60,486 nucleotides of DNA from a virus, in the IMG/VR virus record IMGVR_UViG_3300012154_000001, positions 1 through 60,486 of that record, one strand, 5' to 3'. Both the position numbers and the translations under genes were made by a program. The notes beneath the pieces are model-generated. The model worked only from the letters and a program-made list of their open reading frames with translations. It did not search any database and was not told the origin of the DNA. This document shows positions 16,962 to 30,031 of the stretch, in pieces; the first letter of the stretch is position 1, and each line of letters begins with the position of its first letter.

Positions 16962-18029
16962 TTAGCTCGTGATACTATTTTGATACGATTGTGCCAATGC
17001 ATCGGCCACGTCCTTGTGCTTGTTTGGATATAGATGCCCGTAGGTGCTGTTAACTATCTCAACAGTATCTCCAATTCTTTCGGCTATCAACAAGGGGGAA
17101 AAACCCAGCTCTATAAGAAGGGAAACATGACTATGTCTAATATCATGTACTCGAATTTGCTTGATGCCGGATTGCTGACAACCCATGTTCATTGTTCTTC
17201 TTAATTTCGAACGCGAGAACAAAAATAACCTTTCTCTGGACTGAACGTCATAAATATGGCTCATGTAATCTTCGATTAGATCGATCAAAAAAGGCGGCAA
17301 CGTAACAACACGATTGCTGTTATCTGTTTTTGGCGGCGTAATTATGTCTTTGCCATCGTCTCGATAGTGAGTCTTCGACACGGTTAAGGTTTTGTTTTTC
17401 AAATCAATATCTTTGCTTGGATTAATAGCCATCATCTCGCCAAAACGCAAACCTGTGTAAAAAAGTATCTGAAAGGCCAGCCTGGTTTCCGGCTTTTTAA
17501 TATATTCGAGAAAAGTTATAAATTCTGATTGTGTCCAAAATTCCATGCGCCCTGCCTTTGATTTGCCTATAGTTTTTACCGGCGCACATGGATCAGTGTT
17601 CATTTTATAGTACCTCTTTGCAAAATTAAAAATAGCATTAAGGTCTTTGTTTATCAGCCTCTGGTATGTTGGACTAAATTCCTTTGTCATTATAATCCCC
17701 TGCCATTTTCGGATATCAGCGGGCGTTATTTCGTTTGCACGTTTTTCCTCAAAGTAAGGCAGTATATGATTCTTGATACGGCTTTCCTTGCCCTTAACCG
17801 TAGATGCTTTGATATGTAAGGCGATATCTTCCCTGTAGAGTGCGCAGAGGGCACGAAAGGTCATATCAGGGCTTCCTTGCTGCCGTTCCAGAAAATCCCG
17901 CTCCCAAGCGGCAGCCTCTTTCTTTGTGGAAAAACCGCGCTTCATTTTCTGATCAGACTTTCCCGTCCAATCGGTGTATGAGAATTTGCAGTACCACGTT
18001 TTTCTGGCTTCATCTTTGTATGCTGGCAT
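16962..18029 (-). CDS. int: Tyrosine integrase
   Basis: 355 aa. N-terminal arm/SAM-like domain (WYCKFSYTDWTGK...). C-terminal HDIRHSHVSLLIELG and GHLY catalytic region. Confidence 0.9.
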   Translation of the reverse strand: MPAYKDEARKTWYCKFSYTDWTGKSDQKMKRGFSTKKEAAAWERDFLERQQGSPDMTFRALCALYREDIALHIKASTVKGKESRIKNHILPYFEEKRANEITPADIRKWQGIIMTKEFSPTYQRLINKDLNAIFNFAKRYYKMNTDPCAPVKTIGKSKAGRMEFWTQSEFITFLEYIKKPETRLAFQILFYTGLRFGEMMAINPSKDIDLKNKTLTVSKTHYRDDGKDIITPPKTDNSNRVVTLPPFLIDLIEDYMSHIYDVQSRERLFLFSRSKLRRTMNMGCQQSGIKQIRVHDIRHSHVSLLIELGFSPLLIAERIGDTVEIVNSTYGHLYPNKHKDVADALAQSYQNSITS

Positions 18030-18190: not shown

Positions 18191-18301
18191 GTGGAAAGTC
18201 TCAAAAATGAACTACATGGATTAATCGACAAAATACATAGCGCAAAATTCCTGAAAAGTCTCATTAGTTTAATAAGGAGTGTTTTAGAGAGCGAGGATTA
18301 G
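18191..18301 (+). CDS. Possible micro-ORF (36 aa, GTG), 3' end overlapping the repressor gene
   Basis: VESLKNELHGLIDKIHSAKFLKSLISLIRSVLESED. A competing 11-codon ORF starts at ATG 18189. Coding status uncertain. Confidence 0.25.
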   Translation: MESLKNELHGLIDKIHSAKFLKSLISLIRSVLESED

Positions 18302-18699
18302 TCTTCGCTCTCTTTTTCTACCCTTTCTACTCTGTCGATACAAGCCTTGAATTCCTCATAGATACTTTCCCATTGTTCGTCCGGAAGTGTTTCTACTATC
18401 TTTAGAAGCATTGTAGCCATATTCTTCTTAATGGGACTTCCCACTTCCATTATCTTCCCGAAGCGTCCATATGTTTCTTCTTCTATGGAAAGATCTTTTT
18501 TCATATTGCCCTTGCCGGTCCGCAACCAAACTTCGCTTATACTTAATTTTTCGCATATTTTCGAAATGTGTATGTCCTTGGGGCTCCTTGTTCCCAACTC
18601 CCACATTGCTACCGTGGACGAACCGACCAATATTTCCTTGCTAAATTCCGCCTGGCTCATATTGAGGCTTTCCCTTACTTTTTTTATACGTTCTTTCAA
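18298..18699 (-). CDS. cI-like repressor (XRE HTH, no peptidase domain), TTG start
   Basis: HTH segment is LNMSQAEFSKEILVGSSTVAMWELG. AAGGAGGTG lies 7 nt before the TTG. Divergent from the early promoter. Confidence 0.75.
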   Translation of the reverse strand: MKERIKKVRESLNMSQAEFSKEILVGSSTVAMWELGTRSPKDIHISKICEKLSISEVWLRTGKGNMKKDLSIEEETYGRFGKIMEVGSPIKKNMATMLLKIVETLPDEQWESIYEEFKACIDRVERVEKESED

Positions 18700-18799: not shown

Positions 18800-18874
18800 A
18801 TACTTACAAAGCAAGTAGAAAGTGAGGTGAGACACATAATATTGAAAATCAAAGATGTTGAGAGAAAGGAGATT

Positions 18875-19627
18875 ATGAACGAGTTAATTAGAATCAATTA
18901 TGAAACAGAACAGCCGACAGTATCGGCAAGGGATTTACACGAAGCATTAGAAATTAATACACCATACACAATGTGGTTTGAGCGAATGACAGGTTATGGT
19001 TTTGAAGAAGGAAAAGACTTTCTCACAAAAATGTTAGAAAGTACTGGCGGTCGTCCAATGACCGATAATGACATATCAGTCAATATGGCAAAAGAAATTT
19101 GCATGATTCAGCGTTCCGAAAAAGGCAAACAATACCGCCAGTATTTTCTTGACTTGGAAGATGCTTGGAATACTCCCGAGCAGGTCATGGCCAGAGCATT
19201 AAAGATGGCCGAGCAATCCATGGCTAGCCTGAAAGACCGCTGTCGGTTCTTGGGTGGGCAGGTAGTGGAGCAACAAAAAGTGATCGAGGAGTTGCAACCA
19301 AAAGCATCGTATTATGATTTGATTCTCCAGTGCAAGGATTTGATTGCGACAACGATTATCGCCAAGGATTATGGGATGTCAGCAATAGCATTCAATAAAA
19401 TGCTTCACGAAATGGGAATTCAGTATCAACAGAGCGGAACTTGGGTTCTATATGCAAAATACCAGGGACAAGGGTATTTGAAGCCAAAGACTCATAATTA
19501 CGCCGATACCGCAGGCATTCAACATTCAAGAGAGCATTCCTATTGGACGCAGAAGGGCAGATTGTTTCTTTACGATTTATTGAAACAAGAATGTATATTG
19601 CCCTTGATGGAAAGGAAGATTGCTTGA
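18875..19627 (+). CDS. Antirepressor (AntA N-terminal domain + KilAC/ANT C-terminal domain)
   Basis: Start at MNELIRINY (AAAGGAG SD). Motifs VSARDLHEALEINTPYTMWFERM and YYDLILQCKDLIATTIIAKDYGMSA. Confidence 0.8.
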   Translation: MNELIRINYETEQPTVSARDLHEALEINTPYTMWFERMTGYGFEEGKDFLTKMLESTGGRPMTDNDISVNMAKEICMIQRSEKGKQYRQYFLDLEDAWNTPEQVMARALKMAEQSMASLKDRCRFLGGQVVEQQKVIEELQPKASYYDLILQCKDLIATTIIAKDYGMSAIAFNKMLHEMGIQYQQSGTWVLYAKYQGQGYLKPKTHNYADTAGIQHSREHSYWTQKGRLFLYDLLKQECILPLMERKIA

Positions 19628-20253: not shown

Positions 20254-20457
20254 ATGCAATCGCCAATCATGCGGGCGACAGAGGTCGCGGAACTAATGAA
20301 CGTATCACCGAATACGGCTTACAAGATTATTAAGCAGTTTAATGAAGAATTGAAGGCGAAAGGGTTTTACATTGTGGCCGGACGGATATCACGGAAGTAC
20401 TTTTATGAGCGCACCGGTTTGGAGTTGCCGGATGCCGGAGGCAAAGGCAATGATTAG
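20254..20457 (+). CDS. Excisionase-family / HTH_17-like DNA-binding protein
   Basis: ATEVAELMNVSPNTAYKIIKQFNEELKAKGFYIVAGRISRKYFYERTG is typical of Xis-like proteins from phages and conjugative transposons. Confidence 0.65.
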   Translation: MQSPIMRATEVAELMNVSPNTAYKIIKQFNEELKAKGFYIVAGRISRKYFYERTGLELPDAGGKGND

Positions 20458-20790
20458 CAATGCGCCGATTCGCGGCGCTAGGAGTGGCAAAGGAAGTGCG
20501 AGGCTCAGCATAGCATGGCAAAGGATTGGCAAGGCCAGGATGAGCGCGGCAAGGGAATTGCAGGGCATGGAGCGGCGGAGGAATGGCACTTCAATGCAAT
20601 GGAATTGAGCAGCGGAGAGTTGCAGTGATTGGCAAGGGAATGGCAACGCAATGAGATGCGATGGCAAAGCTGCGCGACACAACGCTTAGCAATGGCAGAG
20701 CAAGGCGCTACGGGGCATTGATTAGCGAAGGCAAGGCGAAGGGTGGTATTGCAAAGGAAACGCAGCGCGTTGCAAAGGCACGGCACAGGA
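20435..20790 (+). repeat. Non-coding array of same-orientation GGCAARG(G/C) motifs
   Basis: GGCAA starts at 20440, 20446, 20486, 20517, 20528, 20548, 20631, 20642, 20663 and 20730. TGCAAAGG at 20750 and 20771. No SD-led ORF; stop-poor in several frames on both strands. Confidence 0.8.
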
Positions 20791-20829
20791 TTCAAAAGCT
20801 AAAACATCAAAAAGAAGAGGAGAGCAGAA

Positions 20830-21471
20830 ATGAAGGAATTGAAAGTAAGAGTAACATTTACGGAGGAAATTTTGGGAACAGCAAGCAGTGACCCAGAGAT
20901 TCACAGCACATTCATTGCATCTAACGCACCTGACGCACCAACACGGGCCGAAGAAGTCGCGGCAATCGGAGTTGATGAAGTGATTGAAAAATCAATGACC
21001 ATCTTCCCGCGCAACAAAGAAGGGCATCCCATTATGTGGGATTATCAGGTGAAGGGATTTTTCAAGGATGCATGCGGCTGTTTGCGAAAAGTGCCAAATT
21101 CGGCATCATCAAAAATCAAGGCTTATAAAAAGGAAATTGATGGATTGATTTTCGTAAAAGAGCGGATGATACCAATCGTTTTTACCGGAGAGATCGGAAA
21201 CTGCCAGCGTCCGCTAAGAGGGCAGACAGCGCAGGGCGAACGAATTGCCCTAGCAAACAGCGAAACTATTCCGGCGGGTGCCTACATCGATTTTACGATC
21301 TCGTGCCTGTGTGATGCGCATGTTAATGCCGTGAGGGAATGGCTTGATTACGGAGAACTGAGGGGCATGGGACAGTGGCGGAACAGCGGGAAAGGCCGCT
21401 ATTTGTGGGACGAGATGGATGATTTGGGCAATGTGATTGGAGGAAACCGTGACTTTGGAGCAAGAAAATAA
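20830..21471 (+). CDS. Hypothetical early protein with C-terminal GxGxxxxxGxG loop
   Basis: 213 aa with a GAGGAG SD. GMGQWRNSGKG near the C-terminus resembles a RAMP-type glycine-rich loop. Family not established. Confidence 0.5.
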   Translation: MKELKVRVTFTEEILGTASSDPEIHSTFIASNAPDAPTRAEEVAAIGVDEVIEKSMTIFPRNKEGHPIMWDYQVKGFFKDACGCLRKVPNSASSKIKAYKKEIDGLIFVKERMIPIVFTGEIGNCQRPLRGQTAQGERIALANSETIPAGAYIDFTISCLCDAHVNAVREWLDYGELRGMGQWRNSGKGRYLWDEMDDLGNVIGGNRDFGARK

Positions 21472-21589
21472 GAAAATCGATTCGGAGTACTGTTACATCG
21501 TCAATGACGGCGCACTCAATCCCTTCGTGGTGAGGACTAATCCCGCCCGTGTGCGGCCGGAGAGGGAGCCGGAAGTAATCAGCGAATAA
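21449..21589 (+). CDS. Possible micro-ORF (46 aa, GTG)
   Basis: GGAGG lies 5 nt upstream. Overlaps the end of the previous gene. Weak support. Confidence 0.2.
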   Translation: MTLEQENKKIDSEYCYIVNDGALNPFVVRTNPARVRPEREPEVISE

Positions 21590-21607
21590 AGAATAGGAGA
21601 GAAGACA

Positions 21608-22231
21608 ATGAAGCTTAATCAGATTATCAAAACATGCAATGTCACAGTATTCGGATTTCCAGCATTCAAGGAACTCGAAAACATGGGAAACGAAATCGGA
21701 AATCAAGATGCTGTATCCACGGTTATATCCACGTTACCAGCGGCAGTCATGCTACATATCTATGATATTGGCGAATATTTTGCTCCTATCATACCGCGCG
21801 GTACAATCTTCGGGAACACAAGTGAGATTATCGAAGCTGACCTGGATGTTAATCACGTATCTGTATTTACGGCCCCCGGCCTTGACACATATGGCCCGGA
21901 CGAATTATTGATAGTAACGCAGCACAAGGCCACTATAGATATTTTGTCTGGCATGCACCCAGGAGCACCTGTTATAACGGCATCCGTATCCGCTGATGAC
22001 ATTAGGGACAAGGTGGTTATCGGAGTGTTGCCGCCGCACTTGATTCAGTTTTGCAAAGCCTTTTCAGCCGCCACAATCAAGGATTATAACGTGGCTGTGG
22101 ATGGGGATATATCTGCGGATGACTTGGGGGATAGGCTGGAGGTAATGTCGCCCATTACCGTCAAGATAAACCGAGAAGGGAGATCAATGATATGGAATGG
22201 GGAGAAGTTACAGAAAAGATTGCGCGGTTAG
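21608..22231 (+). CDS. Hypothetical early protein; C-terminal half Csx16/VVA1548-like
   Basis: LLIVTQHKATIDIL...ADDIRDKVVIGVLPPHLIQFC...GDISADDL resembles the Csx16 pattern (RHpGA..W, GDvViGtLPvhL, RG.eLs). Resemblance judged by eye only. Confidence 0.5.
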   Translation: MKLNQIIKTCNVTVFGFPAFKELENMGNEIGNQDAVSTVISTLPAAVMLHIYDIGEYFAPIIPRGTIFGNTSEIIEADLDVNHVSVFTAPGLDTYGPDELLIVTQHKATIDILSGMHPGAPVITASVSADDIRDKVVIGVLPPHLIQFCKAFSAATIKDYNVAVDGDISADDLGDRLEVMSPITVKINREGRSMIWNGEKLQKRLRG

Positions 22232-22377
22232 AAAAAGAGAATCACGAGTTGAAAAAGGAAGCTCAGAAATATCGAGAAAAAAGCTACTCCTTAAGCACTA
22301 CGGTTCACGAATTGGGCCGCCAGAATGACAAGCTACTGGCAATCATTGAACACTTAGCTAAAGGCGTAGGAAGGTAA
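22192..22377 (+). CDS. Hypothetical coiled-coil protein
   Basis: 61 aa. Overlaps the upstream gene by 40 nt. Confidence 0.4.
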   Translation: MEWGEVTEKIARLEKENHELKKEAQKYREKSYSLSTTVHELGRQNDKLLAIIEHLAKGVGR

Positions 22378-22399: not shown

Positions 22400-22669
22400 A
22401 TGAAATTGAGAGAATTAGCCGGAGTGTTGACTTGTACAAAGACACTTAAATTAAATTTTTACGACGGAAACGAGACAGGCGAACCGGTTGAAGTAAAGAC
22501 GGGAGATAGCGATGCGGACTGTGTGAAACTATGTGAGACATATGGCGGTTATCGCGTGTTTGTAATACATGAAGTGTCTATGGGAAGCGTGCACATAACA
22601 TTAGAGACGCTTAACTACGGCAAAAGCAAAACCCCAGCTGCGGAGTCAGCCGGGGAATCGAGTAACTGA
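22400..22669 (+). CDS. Hypothetical protein
   Basis: 89 aa with an AAAGGAGG SD. Confidence 0.5.
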   Translation: MKLRELAGVLTCTKTLKLNFYDGNETGEPVEVKTGDSDADCVKLCETYGGYRVFVIHEVSMGSVHITLETLNYGKSKTPAAESAGESSN

Positions 22670-27008: not shown

Positions 27009-27442
27009 ATAAAGTAATTTTAATCGGGCGCTTAACCGATGACCCGGACGTGCGTTATTCAGATTCGGGTACCACGGTAGCCAAATTCAGCGTGGCAGTT
27101 GACCGTAGGTATAAAAAAGATGGGGAGCAGAGCGCAGACTTTCCCCGCATAGTAGCATTTGGAAAGACGGCTGAATTTATCGAAAAATATTTCAGAAAGG
27201 GAAACCGGATTGTGCTTGAGGGAAGATTGCAAACCAGCTCTTACACGAACAAGGATGGGCAGAAGGTCTACACCACTGATGTGATTGTTGACCAGGTGGA
27301 ATTTGGTGAAAGCAAAGCCCCTTCTGCCAATAACGGAGGCGATTATCAGCCAACCAGCCGACCGGTTCCAGCAACCGTGATCAACGACGGATTCATGAAC
27401 ATTCCGGACGGCGTAGAAGACGAAAGTTTACCATTTAATTAA
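27005..27442 (+). CDS. ssb: Single-stranded DNA-binding protein
   Basis: OB-fold N-terminus (MNKVILIGRLTDDPDVRY). Acidic C-terminal tip DESLPF. Confidence 0.9.
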   Translation: MNKVILIGRLTDDPDVRYSDSGTTVAKFSVAVDRRYKKDGEQSADFPRIVAFGKTAEFIEKYFRKGNRIVLEGRLQTSSYTNKDGQKVYTTDVIVDQVEFGESKAPSANNGGDYQPTSRPVPATVINDGFMNIPDGVEDESLPFN

Positions 27443-27457
27443 ACAGGAGGTCAGCAG

Positions 27458-27925
27458 ATGGTAATACAAATTGATTCACGCGAAAAGGCTCGTGCAATCC
27501 GCAAGATTGTGGAGACTTTTGATAAGCAGGGAGTACAGCACTTTATAAGCAAGCTTCACGTTGGTGATTACATGAATTTTGATAACCCGCGGCTGATCAT
27601 TGACCGCAAACAAAATCTGACGGAACTGACAAGCAACGTCTGCCAGGGCCACAGGCGGTTCACGGACGAACTGCGGAGGGCGCAAGAAATCGGTGTAAAG
27701 GTGATTGTTTTGGTCGAGCATAGCAATCAGATCAAGAGCATTGACGATGTGCACAAATGGACTAATCCCCGCCTAAAATCATCCCCTAAAGCCGTCACCG
27801 GCGAGAAGCTGGAAAAGATACTGAAAACCATGGAACGGAAGTATAACACGGAATTTCTGTTTTGTGACAAGCTACACACAGGAACGCGGATAATTGAACT
27901 CTTAGAAGGGCGTGAGGCAACTTGA
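27458..27925 (+). CDS. ERCC4-type nuclease (structure-specific / resolvase-like)
   Basis: IDSREK, GDY and IIDRKQNLTELTSNV fit the ERCC4 GDY...ERK..DL..S pattern. Confidence 0.6.
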   Translation: MVIQIDSREKARAIRKIVETFDKQGVQHFISKLHVGDYMNFDNPRLIIDRKQNLTELTSNVCQGHRRFTDELRRAQEIGVKVIVLVEHSNQIKSIDDVHKWTNPRLKSSPKAVTGEKLEKILKTMERKYNTEFLFCDKLHTGTRIIELLEGREAT

Positions 27926-28203
27926 CCAGCCGAAAAATGGAAGCAATCAAAAAGGCAGAGTCAAAGCAAAAGCATGCCTTAATCGAGGCAGAGAACAGGT
28001 CTTTTATGGCCTGGCGCAAAACGCGACTCTTTCAAGTGTGTAGATTGTTGCGGCTCTTGGATCAGTTGATTCCGTTGTATCCTCCTTTTTCGGACGAACA
28101 ATGTGTAGCTGTTGAAATGATGATTCAAAATGAACAAAAATACCAAGTCCTTGCAAGCGGGACAAGGGAGGAGCAGGAGGAAATGAGACGACAGGATGAA
28201 TGA
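27922..28203 (+). CDS. Hypothetical protein
   Basis: TTG 27922 or ATG 27937 as start. Overlaps both neighbours. Confidence 0.4.
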   Translation: MTSRKMEAIKKAESKQKHALIEAENRSFMAWRKTRLFQVCRLLRLLDQLIPLYPPFSDEQCVAVEMMIQNEQKYQVLASGTREEQEEMRRQDE

Positions 28204-30031
28204 GCCGTGGAAAGAATTTACAAAAGACGAATTTAATACGGAAGCGCCCTATGCCCTCTTATTCAGCCACAAGGACGATGGTTTTGCCCACATGCAGTTA
28301 TTTAATACGTTATCGGCCAATGCCGAACGGGTGGGATTTAAACGCTTTAGCATGATGGTTAAGGCTTACTTTGCCCAGCATGAGGACCGTAAAGGGGGAA
28401 TAAGTAGCGTTGTCAACAACCTGACCAACTTTCGGGATCAGTCAATTGAGCTTTTTACCGGCGATTGGATGGCCGACGATCATGGCATTGTCCGGCGAAA
28501 CGATAACCAAGGCATGGACGTGGCCTGTATCCATCCGATCCTGCCGGTGCAGCGGCTGGTCAATATCGACGATGGAACCGTGCGCTTGAAACTGATGTTT
28601 CGCCGGGATTTCAGGGATTGGAAAGAAGTAGTGGCCGACAAGAGTATGTTATTCAGTGCAAGGGAGATAAAAAAATTGGCTGACAGGGATGTGTCGGTTT
28701 CCGACAAGAACGCATCATATTTGGTGGAATACCTCCAGGATATTGACGATCTGAACCACAACACAATTCCCGAGGTGCAGTCAGTAAGTCACCTTGGGTG
28801 GACATCCAACGGGATGTTTAGCCCTTACATGAAAAACTTGGAATTTGATGGGCTGGACAATTTCCGCAGTATTTTTCAGGCCGTTCGAACGCATGGAACG
28901 TTTGAGGAATGGCTTGAGATCGCGAGAGAAGTGCGAAAGACTAACACACCGGCCCGGATTGCTCTGGCTTCGAGTTTTGCGTCGGTGATTCTTAAGACGA
29001 TTGGAAAACTGAATTTTATGGTCCATTTCTGGGGTGGATCGGGAACCGGTAAAACAGTTGCCCAGCTGCTTGCCGTATCCGTGTGGGCAGACCCCGGCGA
29101 CGGCGCGGGCTATATGCAGACGTTCAATGGGACCCTTGTGGGGCTGGAACAACAGGCGAGTTTTGTCAACAACCTACCGCTGGTCCTGGATGAATTCCAG
29201 CTGGTAAAAGACAAGAAATCTTTTGAGCAAGCCGTCTATATGCTGTGCGAGGGAGTGGGCAAGACAAGGGGAGCTAAGACCGGTGGACTGCAAAAGACAC
29301 CTGTATGGAAGAATTGTATTATCACGTCCGGAGAAAGCCCGATCACCCATGCGGCATCCGGTGCCGGAGCTATGAACCGAATTATAGAGATTGAATGCCG
29401 GGATAACCTGTTTGCGGACGCACCGACGCTATTGGATGGTATCCGGCACAATTACGGACATGCCGGAAAGCTGTTTATGGGCTTCATGACCGCAGAGGCG
29501 GCGAGAGAAAAGGCGGTAGGACTGTACAAGAGCTATTATCAGGCTCTTGGTACGGCCAGCACGGAAAAACAGACCATGGCGGCGGCTGCCATCCTTACAG
29601 CGGACGCTCTGGCCACGGAATGGCTGTTTTGCGACGGTAGAGGGCTCACAGTAGAGGATATTGAAAAATACCTGCACAGCAAGGATAACGTGGACGCTGG
29701 GCTTCGAGGGTACGAGTACATACAAGAGTACTACGTGAGCAACTCAGCCAAATTTGAGGCTGATTTTGATCCCTGTTTCGGTACTGTCATGGGTGACGAA
29801 TTGCGGTTCATCAAGCGCAATTTTGAGCAAGTATGCGAAGAGGGCGGGTATAATCCCAAAGCGCTTCTGTCATGGCTTGATCAGGCGGGCAGATTAGACA
29901 AGGGAAAAGACAGTCTGTATAAGTCGACTAAGATTAACGGGACTGCTACTCGCTGCGCTTGTATTAACATGGCGGAGTCCCTACAAATAGAGTTTGATCC
30001 GGTCGGAAACACGGATTTGCCGTTTAAATAG
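28196..30031 (+). CDS. Replicative primase/helicase-like protein (DUF927 / SF3-type NTPase)
   Basis: 611 aa. Walker A FWGGSGTGKT and Walker B LVLDEF. The iteron array lies immediately downstream. Confidence 0.65.
   Translation: MNEPWKEFTKDEFNTEAPYALLFSHKDDGFAHMQLFNTLSANAERVGFKRFSMMVKAYFAQHEDRKGGISSVVNNLTNFRDQSIELFTGDWMADDHGIVRRNDNQGMDVACIHPILPVQRLVNIDDGTVRLKLMFRRDFRDWKEVVADKSMLFSAREIKKLADRDVSVSDKNASYLVEYLQDIDDLNHNTIPEVQSVSHLGWTSNGMFSPYMKNLEFDGLDNFRSIFQAVRTHGTFEEWLEIAREVRKTNTPARIALASSFASVILKTIGKLNFMVHFWGGSGTGKTVAQLLAVSVWADPGDGAGYMQTFNGTLVGLEQQASFVNNLPLVLDEFQLVKDKKSFEQAVYMLCEGVGKTRGAKTGGLQKTPVWKNCIITSGESPITHAASGAGAMNRIIEIECRDNLFADAPTLLDGIRHNYGHAGKLFMGFMTAEAAREKAVGLYKSYYQALGTASTEKQTMAAAAILTADALATEWLFCDGRGLTVEDIEKYLHSKDNVDAGLRGYEYIQEYYVSNSAKFEADFDPCFGTVMGDELRFIKRNFEQVCEEGGYNPKALLSWLDQAGRLDKGKDSLYKSTKINGTATRCACINMAESLQIEFDPVGNTDLPFK

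Follow-up and report, generated by a model that had tools for sequence, protein, structure and literature searches.

A probable Vipr-type RAMP protein and a two-domain Csx16 relative as independent neighbors in the early region of a phage genome

We analyzed two adjacent genes, p1 and p2, of a gut phage represented by the virus record IMGVR_UViG_3300012154_000001 (IMG/VR). The window, i.e. the whole stretch of DNA that was analyzed, comprises positions 1 to 60,486 of this record, and coordinates given without another record name refer to it. The first-pass annotation had read the two genes as a joint countermeasure against type III CRISPR immunity. We favor a different explanation and regard it, taken as a whole, as probable: p1 is a Vipr-type RAMP protein, p2 is a phage two-domain Csx16 protein with likely activity on cyclic tetra-adenylate (cA4), and the two are independent phage conflict genes that are chance neighbors in one early transcription unit. 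The anti-type III interpretation holds up for p2, which belongs to the Csx16 superfamily and to a subfamily found in phages and prophages only, but not for p1 and not for the pair.

The reading of p1 as a RAMP protein was correct, and the evidence lies far beyond chance. The glycine-rich loop G179-M-G-Q-W-R-N-S-G-K-G189 (nt 21364-21396) fits the pattern GxGx5GxG. It had been placed at the very end of the protein, but stands 24 residues before the C-terminus. Among 73 homologues from many phyla, G179, Q182, W183, N185 and G189 were invariant, and a long beta-hairpin 'thumb' is formed by residues 123-147. An AlphaFold2 model built from 73 diverse sequences reached a predicted local distance difference test score (pLDDT) of 83.5 and a predicted template modeling score (pTM) of 0.80. 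Comparison of this model with the PDB using Foldseek returned 175 chains at E ≤ 1e-3, headed by 6xn3_F (E 3.9e-8, TM score about 0.55, about 12% identity). The matched folds were those of Csm3, type VII Cas7, Cas7-11, Cmr4 and Csf2, and 8z4j and 9j9e were also among the matches. The top match in BFVD came from a gut siphovirus; this protein shares 61% identity with p1 and bears the name 'Cas system-associated RAMP superfamily protein'. The p1 family comprises more than 8000 clusters and extends over Bacillota, Actinomycetota, Bacteroidota, Planctomycetota, Synergistota and others, at 42-75% identity. No match to p1 was obtained with the models of Pfam, PHROG, NCBIfam and PADLOC, and nothing useful came from PDB sequence searches for p1 or p2, nor from NCBIfam and PHROG for p2.

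Upstream of p1 lies a purine-rich, non-coding tract with GGCAARG-like words. Phase tracking resolved it into an array of 10 blocks that together hold about 80 G-[C/A]-N-N-N units; each block ends with an extra G and thereby a shift of +1 nt. On the plus strand of the 60-kb genome, 22 segments were counted in which G occupied 8 or more of 9 positions at 5-nt intervals, 19 of them at 20437-20695. Runs of at least eight NNNNG units were found in this array and nowhere else in the genome. No Rfam family was matched in the window. No CRISPR-type repeat was seen in 20400-20900, where the 5-nt array was the only regular array found. Helically phased iterons and a CsrA-type sponge had been considered for the GGCAARG words; both ideas were dropped, as phase tracking revealed a strict 5-nt unit with +1 shifts.

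Equivalent upstream tracts were observed at other loci of the p1 family. A 5-nt periodic segment is present within 800 nt upstream in 106 of 149 loci, and the density of such segments at p1 loci was 10.1 per kb upstream compared to 2.1 per kb downstream. The words are lineage-specific, for instance GAAAAG, GAAACG (Bacteroidales) and GAGACG (Synergistaceae). Individual arrays displayed a repeated word of their own, namely GAAACGGAA in Bacteroidales (L102 3560-3990), GAGACGGA in Synergistaceae (L135 3410-3960) and GCAAAG in Clostridia (L110 3310-3920). Because each lineage's array uses its own repeated word, the data suggest that the constant portion of the repeat co-varies with the protein across the homologous loci. 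Among near-identical phages (L001-L007), the array was the most variable part of the locus, as seen over 20461-20620. Blastn recovered islands only (20626-20671 and 20736-20791), and the p1 DNA was 92-94% identical. Variability of this kind between near-identical phages would be the expected look of guide-like content.

VIPR has been described as a phage-encoded system in which an ancestral solo RAMP protein (Vipr) acts with five-base-repeat RNAs (vrRNA) and silences the DNA of competing elements; the repeats read GGY/NN or follow the variants NNNGG, YNNNG or NNNNG, and the known VIPR accessory (vap) genes lie directly downstream of vipr and encode DNA-binding proteins, nucleases or helicases (bioRxiv 10.64898/2026.04.26.720920, 10.64898/2026.04.26.720927). 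Since p1 combines a RAMP fold with an adjacent 5-nt array, we file it as a Vipr-type protein without assigning a VIPR type, on the grounds of the modeled fold and the array context. The G-[C/A]-NNN units fit the alternative NNNNG and YNNNG classes given in the methods of the VIPR preprint. By analogy with characterized VIPR, p1 is predicted to bind RNA and to target DNA. Its protomers would polymerize on RNAs transcribed from the upstream array and, in complex with them, attach to the double-stranded DNA of rival mobile elements and silence it. The proposal that p1 takes part in a signal-degrading module does not agree with a Vipr-type solo RAMP protein that has its own pentanucleotide, guide-like array.

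Some results speak against the assignment to VIPR. Canonical YNNGG (GGY/NN) runs of at least four units were found on neither strand. A search of phage SUSP1 with the p1 family profile found nothing, and alignment of the p1 profile with the presumed SUSP1 Vipr by hhalign was not significant (7%, P 0.005). Furthermore, the p1 loci revealed no conserved vap partner, the downstream genes falling into 236 clusters. In favor of the assignment, the alignment with SUSP1, not significant at this P value, is co-linear over 171 columns with the 195-aa gene located between the YNNGG arrays of that phage and includes a common GxGxWR..GRF. The neighboring SUSP1 gene, used as a control, gave P 0.48 against the p1 profile. 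The SUSP1 locus also served as a positive control for the array scans: a pattern search for six YNNGG units recovered the published VIPR locus (L172, SUSP1 27300-29500). There, one array lies upstream and three lie downstream of two unannotated genes (195 and 146 aa), and YNNGG arrays were located at 27619-27969 and 29170-29234 of the SUSP1 record, on the minus strand. The 67-aa helix-turn-helix (HTH) gene upstream of p1 was considered as a conserved partner or possible vap gene and rejected, being present in 4 of 157 loci.

The assignment of p2 to the Csx16 superfamily is solid at the profile level. The C-terminal sequence quoted in the first-pass annotation is exact, and the resemblance to the Csx16 pattern noted there by eye proved to be real: despite sub-threshold direct matches, homology extends at the profile level over the whole domain. 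Aligned by hhalign, the C-terminal half of p2 matched canonical Csx16 with 99.8% probability (E 2.8e-30, 92 columns). The PADLOC Csx16 model matched p2 itself at E 2.8e-4, and Pfam PF09652 (Cas_VVA1548) was matched by 22 of 27 members of the p2 family, the best at 1.5e-9. Conversely, the p2 family profile pulled in short canonical Csx16 proteins, and 9 of the 10 tested scored above the Pfam cut-off. The C-terminal half carries the motifs T-Q-H106 (nt 21923-21925) and G139-V-L-P142. H106, G139, L141 and P142 were invariant in the p2 family as well as across 23 canonical Csx16 sequences, at an overall identity of 24-34% between the p2 family and canonical Csx16. Experiments have confirmed canonical Csx16 as a ring nuclease specific for cA4; in the one representative assayed, this specificity persisted when ten-fold more enzyme was used (Hoikkala et al. 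2025, Phil Trans R Soc B, PMC12409355).

A search with the p2 profile returned 681 proteins. About 71 of these have two domains; the others are short, canonical Csx16 sequences aligning with the C-terminal half only. The N-terminal half has invariant residues of its own (K2, L3, F17, T42, P60 and R64) and the motifs STLP (40-43) and P-x-x-P-R-G (60-65), and it contains no His. Alignment of the N-terminal half with canonical Csx16 by hhalign (71 sequences) gave 85.4% probability (E 5.8e-6, 82 columns); in this alignment, STLP is paired with G-x-LP and P-R-G with P-x-R-G. The order of secondary-structure elements in the AlphaFold2 model was parallel in both halves. The N-terminal half probably represents a second Csx16 repeat that has degenerated, and p2 may have arisen by tandem duplication with complementary motif loss. 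As direct comparison of the two halves stayed weak, the duplication idea rests on the alignment of the N-terminal half with canonical Csx16, and we infer it with moderate strength. Many two-domain homologues (P0014, P0018-P0023) carry an additional, poorly conserved C-terminal extension of 80-150 aa, an example being the 342-aa protein of phage phiCs5676-1 (L164 4989-6017).

Other observations count against this reading of p2. The direct match to Pfam Cas_VVA1548 reached 18.3 bits (E 0.0028), below the 25-bit cut-off, and covered residues 102-151 and model positions 2-52 only. In the C-terminal half, D165-G-D167 replaces the canonical R-G-x-E that follows strand 4 and whose R-G is present at this site in about 20 of 23 canonical Csx16 sequences. 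Foldseek of the whole p2 model against the PDB revealed no solved relative, with chance-level matches (best E 0.37), and there was no Csx16 chain among the PDB sequence or fold matches of p2. The link between the N-terminal half and Csx16 is only moderate (85%), and the two halves compared directly by hhalign gave a weak result (P 0.002-0.003).

All nine independent contexts of p2 homologues that were examined proved to be phage or prophage, and within them the two-domain Csx16 subfamily is confined to phages and prophages. They include a prophage of Bacillus sp. KCTC 13219, Robertmurraya prophages, Bacillus phage Shbh1, Clostridium phage phiCs5676-1 and several metagenomic prophages. Homologues occur in three phage records, two of which are the same phage, representing Shbh1 and phiCs5676-1. 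In Shbh1, the product gp42 is annotated 'CRISPR related domain', and an ocr-like gene is 4 kb away. Among the neighbors in the nine contexts, no cas10, csm or cmr Pfam match or annotation was found, the sole cas match being a Cas8c fragment. This fragment is a 178-aa phage protein encoded directly upstream of the p2 homologue in a Robertmurraya prophage (L166 1505-2041); it matches the C-terminal 100 residues of Cas8c/Csd1 only (PF09709, E 3.6e-11, above cut-off) and could act in the manner of Cas11c as a decoy for type I-C CRISPR. In another context, a DUF1874 protein is encoded about 830 bp downstream of the p2 homologue (L160 9389-9763). It matches AFV3-109 (2j6b, E 6.9e-17) and STIV B116, i.e. 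the AcrIII-1/Crn2 family, so that a single small island holds two candidate ring nucleases. The DUF1874 and Cas8c-fragment neighbors fit an anti-CRISPR neighborhood. The connection between Csx16 and DUF1874 proteins drawn in the first-pass annotation stands as a functional one only: p2 has no similarity to DUF1874 in Pfam, in PDB sequences or among its 50 listed Foldseek matches, which do not contain the DUF1874 family structures 2j6b, 2j85 and 2x4i.

From these sequence features we propose that p2 binds and cleaves cA4, or at least captures it, and that removal of cA4 early in infection would switch off type III CRISPR effectors. The two repeats could have decayed in a complementary manner, the N-terminal one having kept LP and P-RG and the C-terminal one RH and G-x-LP. 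The N-terminal half would then supply the P-RG arginine (R64) that the C-terminal half replaced by DGD. In this way, a single p2 chain may imitate a Csx16 homodimer, H106 and R64 together building one composite, asymmetric site for cA4. Enzyme activity, substrate and pseudo-dimer geometry are predictions from homology and motifs, and on this basis a role of p2 as a cA4 ring-nuclease anti-CRISPR is plausible. It is a more tentative idea, which we consider possible and no better than that, that p2 founds a phage-specific group of single-chain, pseudo-dimeric ring nucleases and thereby a new AcrIII family through Bacillota phages.

The loss of R-G-x-E in the Csx16 domain could be expected of a protein that acts as a cyclic-oligoadenylate sponge without cleavage, or of a sensor through which the phage uses the signal to regulate itself. 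The related Csx15 is almost without nuclease activity and has been proposed as a possible sponge, and phage sponges for cyclic nucleotides are known (PMC12409355). However, the two-domain family keeps, likewise without variation, the His that is invariant in canonical Csx16, and the N-terminal half retains an invariant Arg in its P-RG context, so that we judge a pure sponge or sensor unlikely. A further possibility is that the messenger on which p2 acts is not cA4 but, for example, cA3, cA6 or a signal of CBASS, Thoeris or Pycsar. The divergence of the p2 family from canonical Csx16 would allow for this, a ligand without symmetry might be accommodated by an asymmetric pseudo-dimer, and Crn4 is an example of a ring nuclease whose specificity is broad. 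We nevertheless consider it improbable, given the cA4 specificity of the sole Csx16 representative assayed and the linkage of one p2 homologue to a homologue of the cA4 ring nuclease DUF1874.

The favored explanation further holds that p1 and p2 do not form a pair. They are adjacent on the same strand, no terminator-like site was detected between them, and the spacer structure is unremarkable (z +1.27). Given that the solved folds closest to p1 are Csm3 and Cmr4, which form the backbone of type III complexes, this arrangement could argue for a single anti-type III module, in which p1 would be a RAMP decoy or RNA binder directed against Csm/Cmr and p2 would degrade cyclic oligoadenylate. The distribution of the genes largely refutes such a model. 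A p2-like gene was present in 2 of 157 p1 loci. In the reverse direction, a profile search found no Vipr homologue in five p2-homologue contexts (L158-L165; fetched flanks of about 4-8 kb on each side); in the remaining four contexts (L166-L170), to which the Vipr profile was not applied, no neighbor had a cas Pfam match except the Cas8c fragment. In addition, the sister phages L003, L004 and L005, with p1 97-99% identical, are without p2. Blastn homology to these phages stops at 21579 and resumes at about 22619. The gene is flanked by the imperfect direct repeats GGAAGTAAT (21571-21579) and GGAGGTAAT (22138-22146), and the sister-phage junction falls within these repeats and reads ...GGAGCCGGARRTAATGYCGCCCATTACYGTTAAGRTAAATTRA, corresponding to the last p2 codons (PITVKIN/PITVKVN plus stop). 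Because the sister phages keep only the last p2 codons at the repeat junction, p2 is a dispensable accessory gene that was lost there by microhomology deletion. The spread of the p1 family over many phyla, together with the 5-nt array, fits VIPR and not a host-specific decoy. Taken as one anti-defense module, as originally suggested, p1 and p2 are very improbable. Slighter still is the chance that p2 is a vap protein partnering p1: it does occupy the slot directly downstream of vipr, as vap genes do in described loci, but it is rare beside p1, common away from it and dispensable in the sister phages, and the described vap products are DNA-binding proteins, nucleases and helicases.

The viral record is complete, with 60.5 kb and terminal repeats, and the features around the two genes are compiled in Table 1. 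The genes had been described as the first two early genes; plus-strand open reading frames at 18827-19627 and 20254-20457 come before p1. The record also carries several small open reading frames, an SbcC-like ATPase and a RecT-like protein. The end of p1 is overlapped by a 50-aa open reading frame (21437-21589, plus strand) that is conserved in the sister phages, where the deletion of p2 joins it in frame to the last p2 codons. The swappable cassette further encodes a coiled-coil protein of 61 aa (22192-22377) and a protein of 89 aa with no family match (22400-22669). In the sister phages, the same slot holds unrelated small genes. In this group of phages, accessory genes are swapped at the position downstream of vipr.

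Table 1. Positions of features in the p1/p2 region of the window
Feature	Position	Strand	Method or remark
Integrase	16962-18029	minus	
cI-like repressor	18298-18699	minus	
Small HTH gene, 67 aa, phrog_989	20254-20457	plus	in the rightward early region
Non-coding stretch between HTH gene and p1 (370 bp)			
Pentanucleotide repeat array (vrRNA-like)	20436-~20800	plus	phase-tracking segmentation
p1, solo Cas7/Csm3-like RAMP, putative Vipr-type, 213 aa	20830-21471	plus	AlphaFold2 model, Foldseek against PDB and BFVD
p2, two-domain Csx16 relative, 207 aa	21608-22231	plus	
p2 N-terminal half (residues 1-96), probably a second Csx16-like repeat in degenerate form	21608-21895	plus	hhalign
p2 C-terminal half (residues 97-190), full-length Csx16 (Cas_VVA1548) domain	21896-22177	plus	hhalign
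p2-bearing segment deleted in sister phages	21580-22146	plus	blastn

Compared with known systems, the closest structural matches of p1 are the Csm3/Cas7 backbone subunits of type III and type VII CRISPR. At the position of the catalytic Asp loop of Csm3 (D22), the p1 family varies between D and N. Unlike CRISPR Cas7/Csm3, p1 has no cas-family match among the neighboring open reading frames scanned around p1 and p2, the rest of the genome being unscanned for cas. With VIPR, p1 has in common that it is a small RAMP protein with a single RNA-recognition motif, a G-loop and a thumb, encoded by a phage without cas neighbors among the flanking open reading frames. The locus is likewise similar in its long, adjacent, intergenic array of five-base repeats, and the +1-shifted blocks are compatible with the 'staggered arrays' of the VIPR preprint. 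It differs in the repeat consensus, which is G-[C/A]-NNN and not GGY/NN. The system to which p1 is assigned is already described in the 2026 preprints. For p1, the outcome is a corrected annotation: a very abundant 'orphan RAMP' of gut phages would belong to the VIPR world and not to the anti-CRISPRs.

Canonical Csx16 is a stand-alone protein of about 100-130 aa. In comparison, p2 is twice the size and has an extra N-terminal half. The invariant His of [ST]-[RQ]-H and G-x-L-P are common to canonical Csx16 and the C-terminal half of p2. Canonical Csx16 is encoded in type III CRISPR loci, whereas p2 homologues were never located beside type III cas genes in the contexts examined. Csx16 of phages had been mentioned once before, as a count of two among 28,114 phage genomes (PMC12409355). 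Here, a two-domain, phage-only Csx16 subfamily with about 70 cluster representatives was defined, for which H106 and R64 make up a hypothetical active site. The p2 subfamily is a new candidate for a cyclic-oligoadenylate-degrading anti-CRISPR and may represent a natural experiment in fusing homodimeric ring nucleases. The list of known viral type III CRISPR inhibitors is short and includes AcrIII-1, the AcrIIIA proteins, viral SAVED and Crn4b. Compared with AcrIII-1/Crn2 (DUF1874, PF08960), p2 represents a separate family with no sequence or fold match, and the role that we propose for it is the same, namely virus-encoded removal of cA4 directed against type III CRISPR.

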